From assembly GCF_965641715.1 (NCBI RefSeq), contig NZ_OZ282458.1: 7,176 bases of DNA. One strand, 5' to 3'. This DNA is from Escherichia coli (GTDB taxonomy: Bacteria; Pseudomonadota; Gammaproteobacteria; Enterobacterales; Enterobacteriaceae). Numbering within the stretch: position 1 is the stretch's first letter; every line of letters starts with the position of its first letter. The notes beneath the pieces are model-generated. The model did no database searches. It saw nothing but the letters and a program-made list of their open reading frames with translations, and had not been told where the DNA came from. The position numbers were made by a program, and so were the translations under genes. Positions 1-7,176 of the stretch are shown in pieces.

Positions 1-285
1 TTACTTGAACGCTGTGAGGGTAAACAACTGGCGGTATGGATGCGGCGGGTCTGCCTGGGGGAGCCGGTTGCCCGTTCCGGGAAGCTGCCGACACTGGCAC
101 CGCCGTTACTGCGTCAGCTGGCCGCCATCGGGAATAACCTGAATCAGACGGCGAGGAAGGTGAACAGCGAGCAGTGGTCTTCCGGTGACCGGGTTCAGGT
201 GGTGGCCGCACTGATGGCCATCGAGAGAGAGTTGCGCAGCTTACGGCAGGTCGTCAGGGAACATGGAGCGCGGGATGATAGTTAA
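1..285 (+). CDS. mobC: Relaxosome accessory protein MobC/MbeC, C-terminal 94 codons plus stop. The frame is open from base 1, and the N-terminal 13 codons lie at 7138..7176 across the circular join.
   Basis: Frame 1 has no stop from nt 1 (LLERCEGKQLAVWMRRVCLGEPVARSGKLP..). It contains the MobC-family signature LAAIGNNLNQTARKVN. The TAA stop at 283-285 overlaps the mobA ATG (275) by 11 nt. The sequence closely matches my recollection of ColE1 MbeC. Confidence 0.85.
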   Translation, partial: LLERCEGKQLAVWMRRVCLGEPVARSGKLPTLAPPLLRQLAAIGNNLNQTARKVNSEQWSSGDRVQVVAALMAIERELRSLRQVVREHGARDDS

Positions 286-1828
286 GTTTCATGCCAGGGG
301 AAAAGGCGGTGGCAGTGGTCCGGTTGATTACCTGCTGGGAAGGGAGCGTAACCGGGAAGGGGCAACGGTGCTTCAGGGTGATCCGGAAGAAGTCCGGGAA
401 CTCATCGATGCCACGCCATTTGCGAAGAAATACACGTCAGGTGTTCTGTCGTTCGCGGAGAAGGAGCTGCCGCCGGGAGGACGTGAAAAGGTGATGGCGA
501 GCTTTGAGCGTGTACTGATGCCCGGTCTCGAAAAGAATCAGTACAGCATCCTGTGGGTAGAGCACCAGGACAAGGGACGGCTTGAGCTGAATTTTGTCAT
601 TCCGAACATGGAGCTACAGACCGGAAAACGCCTCCAGCCGTACTACGACCGGGCAGACAGGCCGAGAATTGATGCCTGGCAGACGCTGGTGAATCACCAT
701 TACGGGCTGCATGACCCCAACGCCCCGGAGAACCGCCGGACGCTGACCCTTCCTGATAACCTGCCGGAAACGAAACAGGCGCTTGCAGAGAGCGTCACAC
801 GCGGGATAGACGCTCTTTATCATGTCGGGGAGATAAAAGGCCGTCAGGATGTGATTCAGGCGCTCACAGAGGCAGGGCTTGAAGTGGTCAGGGTGACGCG
901 AAGCAGTATCAGCATTGCAGACCCGAACGGTGGGAAGAATATCAGGCTGAAAGGAGCATTTTATGAGCAATCTTTTACAGACGGGCGCGGAGTTCGAGAA
1001 AAAGCTGAAAGAGAGAGCCGAATCTACAGAGACAATGCTGAACGACGAGTTCAGCAAGCTCGAAAAATCTGTAAGCAAGGCTGTGACATCAAACGAGACG
1101 AAAATCAAAGACGCTATAGCCCTGTTCACAGCTTCGACAGAGGAATCACTGAAAAAACACCGGGAAGGGGTGAAAGAGGCGATGATGCAGCACAGGAAGG
1201 ACGTGTTAAAGCTGGCAGGGAATACGGGCATGATGTTACTGGGGATGGTCATTTTCCTGTTTACCGTGAGTGGCGGGACGCTCTGGTATCTTGGCGGGAT
1301 GATACAGGCGAACCTGGAAGAAATCAGGATACAGGAAGAAACATTGCAGAAACTGAACGCGAAGACATGGGGCGTGGAGTTTGTGCAGGACGGGAGAAGG
1401 AAATTTCTGGTCATCCCGCAGGGGAAATCGGCAACGGTGATTCCCTATCAGGGGAAGGACTGGGTACAACTGACGGAGTGACACAGAGTGACGGAGCTGG
1501 AAAGACATTTGCTGAACGCCTTAGAGCAACTGCAACAGGACTATATGCAGCGGCTGAACGAATGGGAGAGCGCCTTCGTGGAATTGCAGAAAATGTTTTC
1601 GCTTACGCAACAGGACAACGCGATGCTGAACGAGCAGGTCATGCAGTTGAGTCAGCAGGTGCAGCACTTGAGCGAGCGGACAGAACGCTTGAGCCAGTTA
1701 TACAGCGAGAACAGGAGATAAGGGACGAACGGCTGATACAGGAGCGCGAACATGAGTTATCCCTGGAGCGTGAGCGCCAGCTGGAAATACAGGAACGGAC
1801 ACTGGATGGCCCTTCGCTGGGATGGTAA
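275..1828 (+). CDS. mobA: MOB(HEN)-family relaxase MobA/MbeA, 517 aa
   Basis: Starting at ATG 275 (MIVKFHARGKGGGSGPVDYLL) puts the catalytic Tyr at residue 19. It also puts the H97/E104/N106 HEN motif (WVEHQDKGRLELNFVIPN) at the positions described for ColE1 MbeA. GGAG at 265-268 lies 6 nt upstream. The ORF-track start at 263 adds 4 codons and is less likely. The C-terminal half is Arg/Glu/Gly-rich and hosts the nested mobB/mobD frames. Confidence 0.9.
   Translation: MIVKFHARGKGGGSGPVDYLLGRERNREGATVLQGDPEEVRELIDATPFAKKYTSGVLSFAEKELPPGGREKVMASFERVLMPGLEKNQYSILWVEHQDKGRLELNFVIPNMELQTGKRLQPYYDRADRPRIDAWQTLVNHHYGLHDPNAPENRRTLTLPDNLPETKQALAESVTRGIDALYHVGEIKGRQDVIQALTEAGLEVVRVTRSSISIADPNGGKNIRLKGAFYEQSFTDGRGVREKAERESRIYRDNAERRVQQARKICKQGCDIKRDENQRRYSPVHSFDRGITEKTPGRGERGDDAAQEGRVKAGREYGHDVTGDGHFPVYREWRDALVSWRDDTGEPGRNQDTGRNIAETEREDMGRGVCAGREKEISGHPAGEIGNGDSLSGEGLGTTDGVTQSDGAGKTFAERLRATATGLYAAAERMGERLRGIAENVFAYATGQRDAERAGHAVESAGAALERADRTLEPVIQREQEIRDERLIQEREHELSLERERQLEIQERTLDGPSLGW
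963..1481 (+). CDS. mobB: Mobilization protein MobB/MbeB, 172 aa, entirely nested inside mobA in another frame
   Basis: AGGAG at 952-956 lies 6 nt before ATG 963. There is one hydrophobic segment (MMLLGMVIFLFTVSGGTLWYLGGM). Size, position and sequence fit the ColE1 mbeB arrangement. Confidence 0.8.
   Translation: MSNLLQTGAEFEKKLKERAESTETMLNDEFSKLEKSVSKAVTSNETKIKDAIALFTASTEESLKKHREGVKEAMMQHRKDVLKLAGNTGMMLLGMVIFLFTVSGGTLWYLGGMIQANLEEIRIQEETLQKLNAKTWGVEFVQDGRRKFLVIPQGKSATVIPYQGKDWVQLTE
1488..1721 (+). CDS. mobD: Mobilization protein MobD/MbeD, 77 aa, nested in the mobA 3' half, same frame as mobB
   Basis: The GTG start at 1488 is 9 nt after GGAG (1475-1478) and 6 nt after the mobB stop. The protein is coiled-coil-like and Gln/Leu-rich (MTELERHLLNALEQLQQDYMQRLNEWE..), as in ColE1 MbeD. 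Confidence 0.7.
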   Translation: MTELERHLLNALEQLQQDYMQRLNEWESAFVELQKMFSLTQQDNAMLNEQVMQLSQQVQHLSERTERLSQLYSENRR

Positions 1829-2079
1829 TCAGAGACAGGCTAAAATGTTGTCAGCGCGTTTCCGGTGCATTTTTTGGGATAATGGTTGGTTCGGGGGCAC
1901 CGGGAACGCGCTTCAGTCAGACCTTGCTGAAAACACAGGAACGCGTTAAAACGCATACGGGCGCGATTCTGGTGTGTCTTTTGTTGCTGTGTTTTGCCTC
2001 TATTGCCAGATCGCGCTCATTCCCCTGAACTTCTGTTTTCCCGCTCCGGTCCCCGTCTTCTTCGCTTCCGAAAGCATGA

Positions 2080-2275
2080 AAAAAATCCGTTTCAGCAGTC
2101 TCTGGCTGGCAATTCCTGCGTGATTCACATGGCTGCATAGCTATGCATGTGGTTAAAATTTACCGGGTGCGATCGCGGCAGTTTTTCGGGTGGTTTGTTG
2201 CCATTTTTACCTGTCTGCTGCCGTGATCGCACCGAACGCGTTTCTGCGGTGCGGGCAACGGATGTTATGGTAAAT
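2080..2275 (+). other. cer: cer-type multimer-resolution site: accessory (ArgR/PepA) sequences plus XerC/XerD core
   Basis: Bases 2133-2247 align almost base for base with my recollection of ColE1 cer (..tgcatagNtatNcatNNggttaaaattta..gcgatcgcggcagtttttcgggtggtttgttgccatttttacctgtctgctgccgtgatcgc..gaacgcgttt..). The ARG-box-like palindrome ctgcatagctatgcatgt at 2133-2150 lies about 115 bp upstream of the crossover core. The left boundary is approximate. In ColE1 this region also holds the Pcer/Rcd promoter, which I have not mapped here. Confidence 0.85.
2248..2275 (+). other. Xer crossover core: XerC arm GGTGCGGGCAA, 6-bp central region CGGATG, XerD arm TTATGGTAAAT
   Basis: The XerD arm is identical to the ColE1 cer arm. 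The XerC arm differs at 2 positions from GGTGCGTACAA. The central region is 6 bp, against 8 bp (TTAAGGGA) in ColE1 cer. Confidence 0.8.
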
Positions 2276-2300
2276 ACAATATGCAGCCAGTCTTAGAGAC

Positions 2301-2329
2301 GAAAAGTCCGCCCAGAAGACTGACTTTTC
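2301..2329 (-). terminator. Hairpin 4 nt downstream of the 68-aa gene stop; possible terminator of the small-gene operon
   Basis: gaaaagtc (2301-2308) pairs with gacttttc (2322-2329), giving an 8-bp perfect stem and a 13-nt loop. The U-run lies inside the 3' arm rather than trailing it. A competing 7-bp stem exists (2288-2294 with 2317-2323). Confidence 0.3.
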
Positions 2330-2332
2330 AGA

Positions 2333-2539
2333 TCAACCTTCAGCATCTAACTTGTCTATCGCTTTTTTATTGCGCCGATAGGTAGCCATTAGTTCACCAT
2401 CGCCTGATTGTAAGTCACGACCTGCTTGCTCAGCATAGGTATCGTTTACAGTCTTAGCGCCTTTTTTATAGGCCTTTTTAACATCATCAAATCCGGCTTG
2501 GATGACTTCTTTCGGCTTTTCTTGAGGTAATTTAGCCAT
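2333..2539 (-). CDS. Hypothetical small protein, 68 aa, Lys/Ala/Asp-rich, predicted helical, no recognisable family
   Basis: The ATG at 2539 overlaps the stop of the upstream 127-aa gene by 8 nt (ATGGCTAA), which indicates translational coupling. No signal peptide, TM segment or HTH is obvious. Confidence 0.55.
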   Translation of the reverse strand: MAKLPQEKPKEVIQAGFDDVKKAYKKGAKTVNDTYAEQAGRDLQSGDGELMATYRRNKKAIDKLDAEG

Positions 2540-2915
2540 GCTGTGAATCCTCTATAAGGTTGATTATTTTTCCAACAGATAAGACGGCATCTTCTGTGTC
2601 GCTGATTTTATGATTTATCCAACCGTCCTCTATCTTTAATTTGTTCACTACTCCTAATGTAAAAACAACCTTTTTTTCAGGAAAGAAAATTGCAAAGGTT
2701 CTACTTTTCTCTTTCCAATCAGAGGGCGGCGTCGAACGGAACGCTACATTCCTCGATTTAAGTATCGCTTTGATTTTACTAATTAATTCTTTTTTTTGTT
2801 TATTGCTGAGATTTTTGACGAACCCTTTGCTGAGATTGTCTGTGTAATCATCAAAAGAAATATCAACTGGTTTGTTTTTTTGTTTTTTATCAGATAGATG
2901 AACAATGTTTGACAC
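2532..2915 (-). CDS. Hypothetical protein, 127 aa, Lys-rich N-terminal half, no recognisable family
   Basis: The GTG start at 2915 has AGGA 6 nt upstream (complement of about 2922-2925). The gene is very AT-rich, yet its ORF is the only long one in the interval. It is followed by the overlapping 68-aa gene. Confidence 0.55.
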   Translation of the reverse strand: MSNIVHLSDKKQKNKPVDISFDDYTDNLSKGFVKNLSNKQKKELISKIKAILKSRNVAFRSTPPSDWKEKSRTFAIFFPEKKVVFTLGVVNKLKIEDGWINHKISDTEDAVLSVGKIINLIEDSQHG

Positions 2916-3054
2916 TGGATATCCTGCTTTTTGATGAATGAATACTCAGAAGAGTAGCGGAACTGTCTTGTTAGTCACAGAGGTAGAGTATCAATTCTAC
3001 GATAGATGGGTTCGAAGATCCGGCTGAGACCGTTCAGTACGCGGTCGAGATGTT

Positions 3055-3059
3055 ATGTT
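3055..3059. repeat. Left copy of the 5-bp target-site duplication ATGTT
   Basis: Identical pentamers directly abut both outer ends of the element (3055-3059 and 3269-3273). A 5-bp duplication is the Tn3-family hallmark. Confidence 0.85.
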
Positions 3060-3097
3060 GGGGTCTGAAGTCCAATGGAACGAAAACGTACGTTAGT
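3060..3097 (+). repeat. Left 38-bp terminal inverted repeat
   Basis: ggggtctgaagtccaatggaacgaaaacgtacgttagt matches about 33/38 against my recollection of the gamma-delta (Tn1000) IR GGGGTTTGAGGGCCAATGGAACGAAAACGTACGTTAAG. It matches about 30/38 against the Tn3 IR. Confidence 0.85.
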
Positions 3098-3140
3098 GAA
3101 GTAACTGTATGATATATCAAGACATAATAGACATAGAAAA

Positions 3141-3164
3141 ACGCCATCAAAACGGTGTCTTTTT
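3141..3164 (+). terminator. Weak terminator-like hairpin plus T-run inside the miniature element
   Basis: acgcc (3141-3145) pairs with ggtgt (3154-3158) including one G-U pair, followed by cttttt. On the minus strand the same stem has an A-C mismatch followed by ttttt. The stem is only 5 bp, so it is marginal on either strand. Confidence 0.25.
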
Positions 3165-3230
3165 AATCGAAAATTGGCACTTAACGGACGGCATTGTCTA
3201 CTAATCGATTTTTAAGACGATAATTTTCCT

Positions 3231-3268
3231 CTTACCGTACATTTTCGTACGGTTGGCCCTCAAACCCC
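3231..3268 (-). repeat. Right 38-bp terminal inverted repeat
   Basis: The reverse complement ggggtttgagggccaaccgtacgaaaatgtacggtaag matches about 33/38 against the recalled gamma-delta IR and 28/38 against the left IR of this element. Confidence 0.85.
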
Positions 3269-3273: not shown

Positions 3274-3519
3274 CAATGTAATGACCGTCGAAATTGCCTT
3301 TACGGGCATGAAGCAACCAGGAGCAATCATTGGCAAAGGTAACTAGAGTTCAATGCATGGTAATCATTTTTGAGCTTGTGATGCATAGAGTTGGTTGCTG
3401 TTCCATTGCGTCTCAAACTCCGTCAAGATGCTCGCCGTAAAAGCGAGCATGTCTAGTATGCCTGTTCCGCTACTGATTTTTGATGGGCGAATTCAGGGCT
3501 GGCTAGCCACCAAGAAAAA

Positions 3520-4581
3520 TTACTTTATTTCATCAAACAGGTGAGATGCAGTATAATAAACGCTTTGATCAAAGCGTCTCTCTGGGCTTAATTTATTTTG
3601 CCCGCCATTTAAAATTATTTCTTTTAATACTGATGGTGGAAGGATGGGTTTTGTTCTTCTTGGGTGATCCATATAAGCTTTTGTTATTTTTCCGTTTAGC
3701 GAGAACTCTTTATCACTTTGATATCCAAAGTTCATCTCAGTATAAATTCTATTGATGTTTGTCTTGTTTTTGCTCGCAATTTCATACACCATTCTGGCGA
3801 GTCTGGCTGATGATCTCATTAGTCTGCTGGCAGATGAATTGTTATATGAGGATCTATCAATAAAGGTTCGACACAAAGCAAAATCACTCCAGATGAATAT
3901 GTCAAAGGCATTTTGATCTAATATTGGGCTCTTGCCTTTTGTTTTCCATAATGGTTGCATTAAAAAAGGTTTCTGGTAATCAAGAAAATTTTCTTGGAAA
4001 GTGTTTAGGCAATTTAATATATTTTCTTTCTTTGAAAGAACTTCAGTTTCATTCCCCCAGTGCTGTATGCTTTCGCATGTGGATTCAAATATTTTTCTTA
4101 TTTCATGGAATTTATCGCTGCAAGAGTGCATTATGCCAAGGGCACAATAAGAAGTGCTTGCAGGTCTTATTACAATCTCTGAACTCCATTCGCTCTCGTT
4201 TTCTTTATATGTCGTGCTATCTGGGAGTACGGTTAATTTTATTTCTAGTGCTTTTAAAAAACTATTGTTTCCTTTTATAACTAGATCTATTCCTTTTATG
4301 TCATCATAAGCATACTGTTGGTATGGTTCATATTTTTTCTCAAATTGAAATTCAAGATCACTATTTTTTAATGTTGTGTTAAAAACGAAGTCAAAAGATA
4401 CTTCTTTGGCATGCACTTTTAAATCCTTATCTAAATAAAGATAAATCGGATTCATTTTGTTGTCTCTCATATAACATGCTAGAGAGGTGGGAAAAGAACT
4501 GTTAAATTGGTTCTTTCCCCACAGATCGCTCTCTTTCCTGTTGGTGTTTTTTAAACCATAAAGAGATTCTATTTTGCTCAC
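3520..4581 (-). CDS. Candidate Type II restriction endonuclease, 353 aa, PD-(D/E)xK fold; specificity unknown
   Basis: It is divergent from, and 87 bp away from, a C5 methyltransferase gene. A candidate catalytic motif is GID(99)LV..x13..ALE(113)IK(115)LT. The GTG start at 4581 follows a strong SD AGGAG (complement of 4588-4592) with a 6-nt spacer. Base composition is AT-rich, as for the methylase. Confidence 0.7.
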   Translation of the reverse strand: MSKIESLYGLKNTNRKESDLWGKNQFNSSFPTSLACYMRDNKMNPIYLYLDKDLKVHAKEVSFDFVFNTTLKNSDLEFQFEKKYEPYQQYAYDDIKGIDLVIKGNNSFLKALEIKLTVLPDSTTYKENESEWSSEIVIRPASTSYCALGIMHSCSDKFHEIRKIFESTCESIQHWGNETEVLSKKENILNCLNTFQENFLDYQKPFLMQPLWKTKGKSPILDQNAFDIFIWSDFALCRTFIDRSSYNNSSASRLMRSSARLARMVYEIASKNKTNINRIYTEMNFGYQSDKEFSLNGKITKAYMDHPRRTKPILPPSVLKEIILNGGQNKLSPERRFDQSVYYTASHLFDEIK

Positions 4582-4592
4582 TTTTTGCTCCT

Positions 4593-4612
4593 GACGTCAA
4601 TTTATTGACGTC
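4593..4612. promoter_or_regulatory. Perfect palindromic operator candidate GACGTCAAT-tt-ATTGACGTC in the R/M divergent intergenic region
   Basis: It has 9-bp perfect inverted arms (4593-4601 and 4604-4612) with a 2-bp centre. It overlaps the -35 of the methylase promoter and abuts the endonuclease SD. It contains two GACGTC hexamers. Confidence 0.6.
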
Positions 4613-4633
4613 TATGGTGTGTTTCTATATCAT
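4605..4633 (+). promoter_or_regulatory. Sigma70-type promoter candidate for the methyltransferase gene
   Basis: -35 TTGACG (4605-4610, 5/6), a 17-bp spacer, then -10 TATCAT (4628-4633, 5/6). The predicted start is near 4640, about 29 nt before ATG 4669. Confidence 0.5.
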
Positions 4634-4646
4634 GATGTGGAGTGAT

Positions 4647-4675
4647 ATGATAATGAGTTTTTTATGTTATGAGAA
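4647..4675 (-). promoter_or_regulatory. Weaker sigma70-type promoter candidate for the endonuclease gene, facing the methylase promoter
   Basis: On the minus strand: -35 TTCTCA (complement of 4670-4675, 4/6), a 17-bp spacer, then -10 TATCAT (complement of 4647-4652, 5/6). The predicted start near 4640 would place the palindrome in the 5' leader of the R mRNA. Confidence 0.3.
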
Positions 4676-5826
4676 TAATTGATCTTTTTAGTGGGTGTGG
4701 GGGGTTATCCCTAGGCTTTTTGAAGGGGGGGTTTGATGTTGTAGGTGCTTATGATTTCTGGGATCCTGCTATTGAATGTTACAGAGATAATTTTAGCCAT
4801 CCGATAAAAAAACTAGATTTGAGCAATGTTGATGATGTGGTGAGGGAGCTTAAAGATATAGACTTCGATATGATTATTGGAGGGCCTCCTTGCCAAGACT
4901 TCAGTCATGCAGGTTTAAGAATTGAAGGTGCTAGAGCTAACTTAACTCGCTCATTTTCAGAAATTATAAAAAGAATAAAGCCAAAGTGGTTTGTGATGGA
5001 AAATGTAGATCGGGCATTAAGAAGTGGTGCCTATTTAGAAGCTCGAGGAATCTTTAAAGAATCAGGGTATGGGTTAACAGAAATTGTTTTGGATGCCAGT
5101 AAGTGTGGTGTTCCGCAAAAAAGAAAAAGATTATTTGTAATTGGAAAGCTTGACGTGAGGGATGGTTTTATCCTTAACGAAGTGATGTGCGGGATATCGA
5201 AAGATAGTATGACAGTTAGAAATTATCTTGGTGATTCATTGGGGATTGAGTATTATTACAGACATCCGAGAAATTATAACAGAAGGGCTATTTTCTCTAT
5301 TGATGAACCTGCGCCAACAGTAAGAGGGGTTAATAGACCGATACCTGATGGATATTTAGGGCATGCAGGCGATCCTGTCAGTATTTCTGAGAATGTAAGG
5401 CCATTAACAACCTTTGAAAGAGCAAGATTGCAAACATTTCCTGAAGACTTTAAATTTAAAGGTGCAAAAACAAATTTGGAGCAAATGATAGGTAATGCTG
5501 TTCCGGTTGAGTTAGCAAAATATGTTGCGGTGACAATCATGGAGTATGAAAAAAAACAAGTAAAAGGTATTTATGATAAAGAAGGCTTTAGGGCGTGGTT
5601 GCTGAATGAAAAGAAACTAACAAAAAGAACCTCTAGCGATATTATATCTAGATGTTGCAGAGGTGTTTCATTTTTTGATTCAGAGGGGGTGGATTTTTAT
5701 AACTGTGAAATAGATGAAATTATTATGAAACTGGAAAGGCTTGAATCGTTTGTCAGGCTTGGGGTTAGCCTGAAGTCTCAGTTAAGAAGGGCTTTTAAAT
5801 TATATTACGAATATTGTCGAAGGTAA
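4669..5826 (+). CDS. DNA (cytosine-5)-methyltransferase, 385 aa, Dcm family, with a C-terminal extension of about 95 aa
   Basis: All canonical motifs are present in order: I DLFSGCGG (aa 5-12), IV GGPPCQDFS (catalytic Cys74), VI ENV (111-113), VIII QKRKR (150-154), IX RPLTTFERARLQTFPEDF, X GNAVPV (275-280). The variable/target-recognition region is short (about aa 160-245). Residues from about 292 to 385 lie beyond motif X. Confidence 0.9.
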   Translation: MRIIDLFSGCGGLSLGFLKGGFDVVGAYDFWDPAIECYRDNFSHPIKKLDLSNVDDVVRELKDIDFDMIIGGPPCQDFSHAGLRIEGARANLTRSFSEIIKRIKPKWFVMENVDRALRSGAYLEARGIFKESGYGLTEIVLDASKCGVPQKRKRLFVIGKLDVRDGFILNEVMCGISKDSMTVRNYLGDSLGIEYYYRHPRNYNRRAIFSIDEPAPTVRGVNRPIPDGYLGHAGDPVSISENVRPLTTFERARLQTFPEDFKFKGAKTNLEQMIGNAVPVELAKYVAVTIMEYEKKQVKGIYDKEGFRAWLLNEKKLTKRTSSDIISRCCRGVSFFDSEGVDFYNCEIDEIIMKLERLESFVRLGVSLKSQLRRAFKLYYEYCRR

Positions 5827-5886
5827 TAAATACGAATTTATGTCTCTCAGGGGAGGGGGAGGGGATAAAAAGATCAAAGGATCCTC

Positions 5887-5926: not shown

Positions 5927-6034
5927 ACAAAAAAACCACCGCTACCAACGGTGGTTTGTTTGCCGGAATCTAGAGCTACCAACTCTTTCTTCCGAAGGTA
6001 ACTGGCTTGGTGGAGCACAGATACCAAATACTGT
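5927..6034 (-). ncRNA. RNAI: RNAI antisense copy-number regulator (about 108 nt)
   Basis: The reverse complement reads acagtatttggtatctgtgctccaccaagccagttaccttcggaagaaagagttggtagctctagattccggcaaacaaaccaccgttggtagcggtggtttttttgt. It has a three-stem-loop architecture collinear with pMB1 RNAI. Confidence 0.85.
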
Positions 6035-6070: not shown

Positions 6071-6459
6071 GAACTCTTAATATCTCAATCCACCTTGTCC
6101 AGTTACCAGTGGCTGCTGCCAGTGGCGCTTTGTCGTGTCTTACCGGGTTGGACTCAAGACGATAGTTACCGGATAAGGCGCAGCGGTCGGGCTGAACGGG
6201 GGGTTCGTGCACACAGCCCAGCTTGGAGCGAACGACCTACACCGAACTGAGATACCAACAGCGTGAGCTATGAGAAAGCGCCACGCTTCCCGAAGGGAGA
6301 AAGGCGGACAGGTATCCGGTAAGCGGCAGGGTCGGAACAGGAGAGCGCACGAGGGAGCTTCCAGGGGGAAACGCCTGGTATCTTTAAGTCCTGTCGGGTT
6401 TCGCCACCTCTGACTTGAGCGTCGATTTTTGTGATGCTCGTCAGGGGGGCGGAGCCTAT

Positions 6460-6882: not shown

Positions 6883-7074
6883 TCAGAGGTTTTCACCGTC
6901 ATCCCCGAAGCGTGCGAGGCAGCTGCGGTAAAGCTCATCGGCGTGGTCGTGAAGCGATTCACAGATGTCTGCCTGTTCATCCGCGTCCAGTTCGTTGAGC
7001 TTTTCCAGCAGCGTTAATGTCTGGCTTCTGATAAAGCGCGCCATGTTAAGGGCTGTTTTTTCCTGTTTAGTCAC
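6883..7074 (-). CDS. rop: Rop/Rom, RNAI-RNAII kissing-complex stabiliser, 63 aa
   Basis: From GTG 7074 the product is MTKQEKTALNMARFIRSQTLTLLEKLNELDADEQADICESLHDHADELYRSCLARFGDDGENL, identical as far as I recall to pBR322 Rop. The 95-aa ORF-track version (to 7170) is an upstream in-frame extension. Confidence 0.9.
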   Translation of the reverse strand: MTKQEKTALNMARFIRSQTLTLLEKLNELDADEQADICESLHDHADELYRSCLARFGDDGENL

Positions 7075-7137
7075 TGATGCCTCCGTGTAAGGGGGATTTC
7101 TGTTCATGGGGTAATGATACCGATGAAACGCGAGAGG

Positions 7138-7176
7138 ATGCTCACGATACGGGTTACTGATGATGAACATGCACGG
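7138..7176 (+). CDS. mobC: MobC/MbeC N-terminal 13 codons (MLTIRVTDDEHAR), continuing at base 1 across the circular join; 107 aa in total
   Basis: The frame is contiguous with frame 1 of the window start. An upstream in-frame stop lies at 7075-7077. In-frame ATGs occur at 7114, 7123 and 7138. ATG 7138 gives the MLT..RVT.DEH..LLERC N-terminus recalled for MbeC, a ribbon-helix-helix beta-strand region. Confidence 0.6.
   Translation, partial: MLTIRVTDDEHAR

Follow-up and report, generated by a model that had tools for sequence, protein, structure and literature searches.

ORF127 and ORF68 are overlapping genes that together make up an autonomous two-gene operon, which is horizontally mobile and belongs to a family not described before. 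The operon was analysed in a DNA stretch of 7,176 nucleotides, here called the window, which is a ColE1-type mobilisable plasmid near-identical to the E. coli pEC34B family (plasmids of 6.7-7.2 kb), for which the literature mentions only the replicon and the mob genes. In the window the pair lies beside a restriction-modification (R-M) module (Table 1), named Eco034I (also written EcoO34I) in the pEC34B family; HindVP/BsaHI-type enzymes recognise GRCGYC. The pair is a rare self-contained module; it is mobile between plasmids and genomic islands and mostly comes to lie beside anti-phage genes, and it is very probably independent of R-M and bounded by Xer sites. Its protein families are new, and its organisation as a module is of a known kind.

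Table 1. Features of the window, with positions counted from its first nucleotide.
Feature	Position	Strand	Details
MobC/A/B/D	40-1828		
Site A, cer crossover core	2248-2275	plus	GGTGCGGGCAA-CGGATG-TTATGGTAAAT (XerC arm, 6-nt centre, XerD arm)
Candidate terminator	2285-2325	minus	Long hairpin, then U-rich stretch; directly after the ORF68 stop, between cassette and cer
ORF68	2333-2539	minus	68 aa, ATG start
8-nt overlap	2532-2539	minus	ATGGCTAA; ORF68 ATG (2539-2537) and ORF127 TAA (2534-2532)
ORF127	2532-2915	minus	127 aa, GTG start
Shine-Dalgarno-like element for ORF68	2548-2552	minus	GAGGA; inside the ORF127 3' end, 8 nt before the ATG
Shine-Dalgarno-like element for ORF127	2922-2925	minus	AGGA; 6 nt 5' of the GTG
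Palindrome	2943-2956		TACTC-N4-GAGTA; overlaps the putative -10
Putative weak promoter-like element	2951-2978	minus	-35 GTGACT (2973-2978), 16-nt spacer, -10 TACTCT (2951-2956)
Site B, Xer-type core	3036-3059	plus	AGTACGCGGTC-GAGATG-TTATGTT(CAAT); last 4 nt at 3274-3277
Tn3-family miniature inverted-repeat element	3060-3268		209 bp; 38-nt terminal repeats; 5-bp target duplication ATGTT
HindVP-family endonuclease (R)	3520-4581	minus	
C5 cytosine methyltransferase (M)	4669-5826	plus	
RNAI	5927-6032		Rfam
Rop	6883-7170		

Both genes lie on the minus strand, and the 8-nt overlap that the initial annotation reported between them was confirmed. The Shine-Dalgarno-like element of ORF68 lies within the upstream gene, and a GAGG/GGAG-type element was found at the equivalent position, again within the upstream gene, in distant homologues. 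ORF127 and ORF68 occurred together and overlapping in all 12 contexts read, over an identity range of 25-98%. At every readable locus the small gene was directly downstream, with an overlap of 8, 14, 35 or 53 nt, in keeping with the translational coupling that had been proposed for the pair. No partner swapping between the two families was seen; they always co-occurred. The GTG start was retained in most homologues.

Purifying selection acts on both genes. Lack of conservation in related plasmids had been named as what would speak against the cassette; the pair is conserved there, with dN/dS across the E. coli, Cronobacter and metagenomic plasmid variants of 0.08-0.32 for ORF127 and 0.10-0.21 for ORF68. 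These values, well below 1, argue against the ORFs being non-functional or chance reading frames, as do the presence of the exact proteins on ~900 contigs and the persistence of length, gene order, overlap and motifs in homologues down to 25-43% protein identity. What can be said for chance frames is that the families are tiny and that every public name for their members is 'hypothetical protein'. The conservation data refute this idea, and its probability is negligible. Frameshifted or truncated variants (P0006, P0007 and P0012-P0015) were considered as evidence on which partner is dispensable and were rejected, because their breaks, which fall within homopolymer runs, resemble sequencing errors.

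Neither protein could be placed in a characterised family, as had been the case when the genes were first read from the sequence. Searches of Pfam, NCBIfam, PHROGs and PADLOC brought neither protein to a curated threshold and returned no homology above threshold to known toxin or antitoxin superfamilies. The defence-system models of PADLOC-DB v2 gave no match to the cassette even at E-values up to 10, and no significant match was found between PDB sequences and profiles of the whole ORF127 family, its C-terminal domain or the ORF68 family. No HTH, RHH or AbrB domain was found in either protein. A word-indexed search of 5.8 billion proteins returned close relatives only. An ORF127 family of 16 proteins with 25-43% identity came out of a full HMM search over 1.84 billion cluster representatives, and a profile search defined an ORF68 family of 17 clusters. 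The RefSeq protein accessions of the pair retrieved nothing from the literature. The cassette was present in 22 of 72,556 plasmid records, in 2 of 185,579 species-representative genomes (searched with a closer ORF68 alignment) and in 39 of 5,426 complete E. coli genomes (~0.7%), on small plasmids every time and with O111:H8 STEC strains among the carriers. None of 50,697 phage records was matched by tblastn with the window ORF127, a query able to detect close relatives only.

ORF127 is a basic protein (pI 9.6). Its N-terminal peptide, MSN(I/V)(I/V)xF, is conserved throughout the family and is followed by a Lys-rich segment predicted to be disordered and, in the AF2 model, by an alpha/beta domain at about residues 35-125 with a helix-strand-strand-strand-helix arrangement. 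The model was built from 6 sequences only and had a mean pLDDT of 61.5, with ~75 over residues 35-105; with modest confidence, the domain is predicted to have a Vsr/DUF559-like endonuclease fold. A Foldseek search of ORF127 against viral models gave no match at E <0.05. The resulting list was dominated by DUF559, Vsr and homing endonucleases, none of them significant.

Only K49 and W99 are invariant in the ORF127 family, with L52 and F85 nearly so. The window protein carries a PPSD...EKK pattern reminiscent of PD-(D/E)xK; this PPxD...ExK-like pattern is shared by some relatives and lost in others, and no catalytic residues, whether Asp plus (D/E)xK or the Asp/His of Vsr, are conserved across the family. 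The Pfam Vsr model matched one of the 16 members, at an E-value of 0.078. Because the catalytic-like positions vary and the sequence links to Vsr are not significant, ORF127 is probably a degenerate nuclease fold, a binding domain rather than an enzyme. An hhalign comparison of the family with E. coli Vsr aligned the expected helix-strand region at a probability of 1.5% and was rejected as evidence. The initial annotation had seen neither an HTH nor a nuclease motif; the first part holds, whereas the predicted ORF127 fold does resemble small endonuclease-like proteins, with catalytic residues that are not conserved. ORF68 is predicted to be a helical hairpin (helices 8-45 and 49-66, pLDDT 74) and its fold matches were generic. 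Its invariant residues are G27, N32, A39, G40, L43, G46, M51 and Y54. ORF68 is mildly basic, and the majority of its family is basic.

The R-M module and the cassette each occurred without the other. Three ColE1-like plasmids, one from Citrobacter and two from Morganella, carry the R-M module without the cassette; their R is 81% identical, the methyltransferase is present, and nucleotide homology to the window extends at most from 3519/3527 to 5829, ending at the R stop codon. The cassette in turn was found without this R-M module in at least six other settings. In Cronobacter plasmids it lies beside an NsnA-like DUF262 gene or is divergent from an uncharacterised 273+242-aa pair, in Salmonella it lies between a P4-type integrase and Hachiman, and in Pectobacterium it adjoins PDC-M25A/B. 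It adjoins an IS3 element in Enterobacter and an integrase remnant in Erwinia. In Aeromonas it stands alone between trkH and a topoisomerase gene (two species) or at the tail end of a prophage, and on a 144-kb element it lies beside kfrA, ending a run of 23 small same-strand ORFs of unassigned function. HamA/HamB, NsnA and PDC-M25A/B were the PADLOC matches among these neighbours. The islands share only a 1.6-kb block consisting of the pair and its flanks, in which Rfam gave no match; RNAI was its sole match in the window. Of the two associations that the initial annotation had put forward for checking, homologues do travel with defence genes and are not tied to this R-M family.

Since the R-M module and the cassette are separable both ways, the earlier model in which R, ORF127 and ORF68 form one read-through unit is not supported, and neither is the suggestion of an R-M accessory or regulator pair. 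On the latter view the cassette would be co-transcribed with R and would act, for example, as a controller or as a repair nuclease of the Vsr kind that accompanies the C5-methyltransferase. Such a role would agree with the co-directional placement of cassette and R, with the lack of a canonical terminator after R and of a strong promoter before the GTG, with third-position GC equally low in R, M and cassette, and with the appearance of Vsr in the ORF127 fold list and in the single Pfam match. It is largely refuted by the distribution described above, in which homology of the R-M module stops at its own boundary. In addition, an Xer-type site and the 209-bp transposon stand between R and the cassette, the Vsr catalytic positions are not conserved, the hhalign probability is 1.5%, and there is no HTH. 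Collectively, these results make a function tied to R-M very unlikely.

Base composition likewise bears on the history of the genes. The two ORFs had been thought to differ in composition by eye, and their total GC does differ (34.1% for ORF127 and 42.0% for ORF68). The difference in origin that this might imply was wrong, as third-position GC is 0.336 in ORF127 and 0.319 in ORF68, compared with 0.308 in R, 0.293 in M and 0.48-0.61 in mobA and rop. Because third-position GC is equal in the two ORFs, the gap in total GC reflects amino-acid content, and ORF127 and ORF68 share an origin.

A scan 3' of R found no canonical terminator, only a 9-bp hairpin lacking a U tract at 3428-3450, and a consensus scan of the minus strand over 2916-3058 found no sigma-70 site; on both points the initial annotation was right. 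The putative weak promoter-like element upstream of the GTG scores below the threshold of that scan and is proposed from its positional conservation only: it is kept in position in the Cronobacter plasmids, and TTGAAT-18-TACTCT stands at the matching place in chromosomal-island homologues, whose proteins are only 35% identical. The pair has a single candidate operator, the 5+5-bp palindrome across the putative -10. About 100-145 bp 5' of the GTG are conserved together with the genes in settings that lack R-M, which argues for expression signals of the cassette's own and against dependence on R. At the other end, the hairpin of the candidate terminator was taken from a centroid structure, and the z-score over the full 106-nt stretch was not significant.

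The boundaries of the cassette coincide with two Xer-type cores, both identified by sequence only. Between the E. coli and Cronobacter plasmids an 810-bp block (2248-3057; 1280-2081 in L002) is 88-91% identical, compared with 73-75% for the replicon. No other part of the window is strongly similar to the Cronobacter plasmids, and the ends of the block coincide with the outer ends of both cores. ColE1-type plasmids have passed the pair among themselves as this block. Site A, the downstream boundary of this common block, has a perfect XerD arm, and the accessory region of cer lies on its XerC side; the XerC and XerD arms were assigned from what is established about cer and dif sites. Site B, the upstream boundary, is in direct repeat with site A. 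In the window its XerD-like arm is split by the Tn3-family miniature element, which lies outside the cassette, between it and R, and is missing from the 6715-bp sister plasmids. Site B is intact in pEC34B (AGTACGCGGTC-GAGATG-TTATGTTCAAT), 120-145 bp upstream of the GTG, and equivalents were found in every plasmid lineage, their XerD-like arms having 0-2 mismatches across 6 lineages.

Related cores occur elsewhere. In the Citrobacter plasmid a cer-like core lies 145 bp after R with its XerD arm proximal, and so has the polarity of site B. A 42%-identical homologue, carried on a metagenomic contig of 1.6 kb, is likewise followed by a cer-like core, whose orientation relative to the genes matches that in the window. 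No Xer-like cores were found around the chromosomal copies of the cassette, which makes the Xer association specific to plasmids. The order M-R-site B-cassette-site A (cer) would be the product expected from a small circle integrating at cer, and the block may thus have entered the plasmid by XerCD recombination at that site. Tran and colleagues are said to have described, in 2012, Xer-site-mediated rearrangement in small ColE1-like qnrB19 plasmids.

This arrangement raises the question of whether the pair itself serves mobility, aiding either Xer recombination at sites of the cer type or, in islands, the tyrosine integrases, with the nuclease-fold protein binding DNA and the small partner modulating it. 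XafT of TLC-phi and XisH/XisI are factors with a comparable recombination-accessory logic. The cassette is the sole content between two directly repeated Xer-type cores in ColE1-type plasmids, the distant homologue on the metagenomic contig is also beside such a core, and a P4-type integrase gene or its remnant lies 0.3-1.7 kb upstream in Salmonella, Pectobacterium and Erwinia. Two basic proteins, one of them with a predicted DNA-enzyme-like fold that lacks catalytic residues, would suit such a task. However, the chromosomal copies have no flanking Xer-like cores, the 1.6-kb island block excludes the integrase gene, and in Enterobacter and Aeromonas there is either a different integrase or none at all. 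Proximity to cer on a small plasmid is weak evidence, and in Pfam neither protein resembled a known directionality or Xer-activation factor. We therefore consider a mobility function unlikely. It is similarly doubtful that the cassette is a minimal Xer-mobilised 'mini-IMEX' of ~0.8 kb at cer carrying a new class of protein pair. Were this so, the pair would either act through a new toxin-antitoxin or abortive-infection mechanism based on a nuclease fold that has lost catalysis, or supply factors that promote recombination of the element itself.

Leaving the route of entry aside, the two basic proteins may act as a complex, kept in fixed proportion by translational coupling. ORF127 would bind nucleic acid through its degenerate nuclease-fold domain, which is probably non-catalytic, its conserved N-terminal peptide would be an interaction peptide, and ORF68 would be the helical-hairpin partner. 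As to what such a complex does, we rank first, and tentatively, a selfish addiction or abortive-infection-type module, similar to toxin-antitoxin systems, that would stabilise its carrier DNA or kill infected cells; this is plausible but falls short of probable. The ranking follows from the bicistronic coupling, the predicted weak autonomous expression, the sporadic distribution and the recurring anti-phage neighbours. The settings that we counted towards it are integrase-associated islands, a prophage end, a solitary insertion and neighbours of the Hachiman, NsnA-like, PDC-M25 and HindVP R-M kinds; a patchy distribution over prophage ends and solitary insertions is typical of toxin-antitoxin loci. 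The initial suggestion of a toxin-antitoxin-like pair or a small anti-phage module is compatible with the data. Several points weigh against the addiction or abortive-infection reading. The proteins resemble none of the known families of toxins, antitoxins or defence genes, the residues conserved in ORF127 do not form an enzyme-like set, and an antitoxin domain able to bind DNA was recognised in neither protein. Classic antitoxins are usually acidic, but here both members of the pair are basic. The defence-gene neighbourhood could equally well reflect a role of the cassette in the backbone or the mobility of its carrier elements.

On another reading, the pair would serve in anti-defence, establishment or regulation, protecting incoming mobile DNA or tuning low-GC neighbouring cargo by binding nucleic acid or a host factor and leaving the cell unharmed. 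The pair is found only on mobile elements and always beside accessory cargo, and the 23-ORF run next to kfrA on the 144-kb element recalls plasmid leading regions. Small basic proteins with no enzymatic signature, a GTG start and the putative weak promoter also fit. However, orientation and distance relative to defence genes vary, from divergent in Cronobacter to co-directional in the window and alone in Aeromonas; there is no HTH or other regulator domain, and the tblastn search of phage records with its reach to close relatives came back empty. Known anti-restriction proteins are typically acidic DNA mimics, unlike the basic proteins encoded here. Taken together, these points make an anti-defence or regulatory function improbable. 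Whatever probability these readings leave falls to an explanation not yet conceived.

Should the cassette prove to serve addiction or abortive infection, the genes of plasmid stability and phage defence would gain a family that has no detectable relatives, and this would help to explain the persistence of the small R-M plasmid in complete E. coli genomes. If its role is instead in recombination, it would stand out among Xer-dependent cassettes as self-contained and unusually small. For cloning, its boundaries are 2248-3059 plus 3274-3277 of the window, with the transposon excluded. The strict pairing, the tiny families and the repeated Hachiman, PDC-M25, NsnA-like and R-M neighbours make the cassette a reasonable candidate for defence-island screens.

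Among known systems, type II toxin-antitoxin operons likewise consist of two small overlapping genes under their own weak promoter, which is putative in the cassette, and are likewise patchy on plasmids, islands, prophage ends and solitary chromosomal insertions, frequently with defence neighbours. ORF127 and ORF68 are adjacent, co-oriented, co-translated small genes on mobile DNA, as looked for in toxin-antitoxin loci. The cassette differs from type II families in having no sequence relation to them and no antitoxin domain that binds DNA; its two proteins are both basic, catalytic residues are not conserved and partners have not been seen to swap. Compared with the small endonuclease-like proteins of the Vsr/DUF559/VRR-NUC kind (PDB 3hrl, 4qbl and 1cw0), ORF127 has no significant sequence similarity, and the acidic, histidine and lysine positions used in catalysis are not conserved in its family. 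It also has an extra conserved N-terminal peptide and an obligate small partner.

The EcoO34I/HindVP-type (GRCGYC) R-M module of the pEC34B family adjoins the cassette physically and has equally low third-position GC. Unlike a partner of the cassette, it is separable from it in evolution in both directions, with its module boundary at the R stop codon. The closest parallel in architecture is with Xer-bounded modules, such as those of qnrB19 ColE1-like plasmids, the pdif modules of Acinetobacter plasmids and IMEX elements. In these, too, XerC/XerD-type cores enclose a short cargo and mark the points where the homology shared by otherwise unrelated backbones ends. The cores of pdif modules are inverted, in contrast to those of the cassette, which are direct repeats, as would be left after integration of a circle. 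The cargo here is an uncharacterised gene pair rather than a resistance gene, carried between sites whose recombination is predicted from their sequence.

The cassette (the overlapping minus-strand pair ORF127 and ORF68) is transcribed towards a ColE1-type cer site, with 58 bp between the cassette end and the XerD arm. The upstream accessory sequence of cer contains the palindromic TGCATAGCTATGCA. The R-M module, comprising the HindVP-type endonuclease R and the C5 methyltransferase (window 3519-5829), is common to Citrobacter and Morganella ColE1-like plasmids at 75-78% nucleotide identity, with the stop codon of R as the exact boundary of this common module. On the Citrobacter plasmid, a cer-like core lies 145 bp beyond R. 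This arrangement suggests that the R-M module is itself a cer-adjacent cargo module.

In Cronobacter ColE1-like plasmids (L002-L007; e.g. L003 2357-3906), two overlapping genes of 273 aa and 242 aa are oriented divergently to the cassette, and searches of Pfam and PADLOC gave no match for them. This is a further unexplained cargo pair, located in the slot filled by defence genes in sister plasmids. Near the cassettes of Enterobacter and Erwinia are 151-161-aa ORFs related to the 151-aa protein of the Salmonella island. The Aeromonas cassette copies are preceded by a (ACATATAC)n / (CA)n microsatellite (L016 about 6330-6400; L028 about 9440-9520).

Features of the window plasmid and related loci
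Feature	Location	Strand	Description
68-aa ORF	window 1822-2028	plus	directly after mobA
ColE1-type cer site	window 2040-2275		crossover core 2248-2275; accessory sequence upstream of core
Tn3-family miniature inverted-repeat element	window 3060-3268		209 bp; 38-nt terminal repeats; 5-bp target duplication ATGTT
151-aa protein	L017 9217-9672		Salmonella island, between cassette and Hachiman; uncharacterised; 'IEFK' motif
Third ORF, 31 aa	L012 6592-6687		hydrophobic; overlaps end of ORF68 homologue; one environmental lineage

The XerD-like arm of the second Xer-type core, upstream of the cassette, is the insertion point of the miniature element, which the 6715-bp sister plasmids lack. Its terminal repeats were identical at 30/38 and 26/38 positions to the Tn3 repeat. 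A 1.4-kb query matched 1,597 PLSDB records, most of which owe their match to the miniature-element segment; among the matches listed, seven records carry the element at 99-100% identity. Separately, a 10,981-bp variant of the window plasmid (L010, NZ_CP148343.1) has a Tn3-family transposon encoding a resolvase and a transposase in its mobA region (5963-9533).

The 11-mer GTTCCGCTACT occurs at 2953-2963 (minus), where it extends from the spacer into the first positions of the -10 in the putative promoter-like element of the cassette, and as an inverted copy at 3464-3474 (plus), shortly after the stop codon of R. The segments 2924-2943 and 3473-3492 form a 20-nt direct repeat with 80% identity. 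Judged from sequence, these recurrences may reflect either chance or a shared operator.

Two additional small ORFs were noted. The hydrophobic third ORF of L012 has no counterpart in the window. The 68-aa ORF that follows mobA may be the counterpart of the 'mobE' annotated in the near-identical plasmid pEC34B (PMC9282650).
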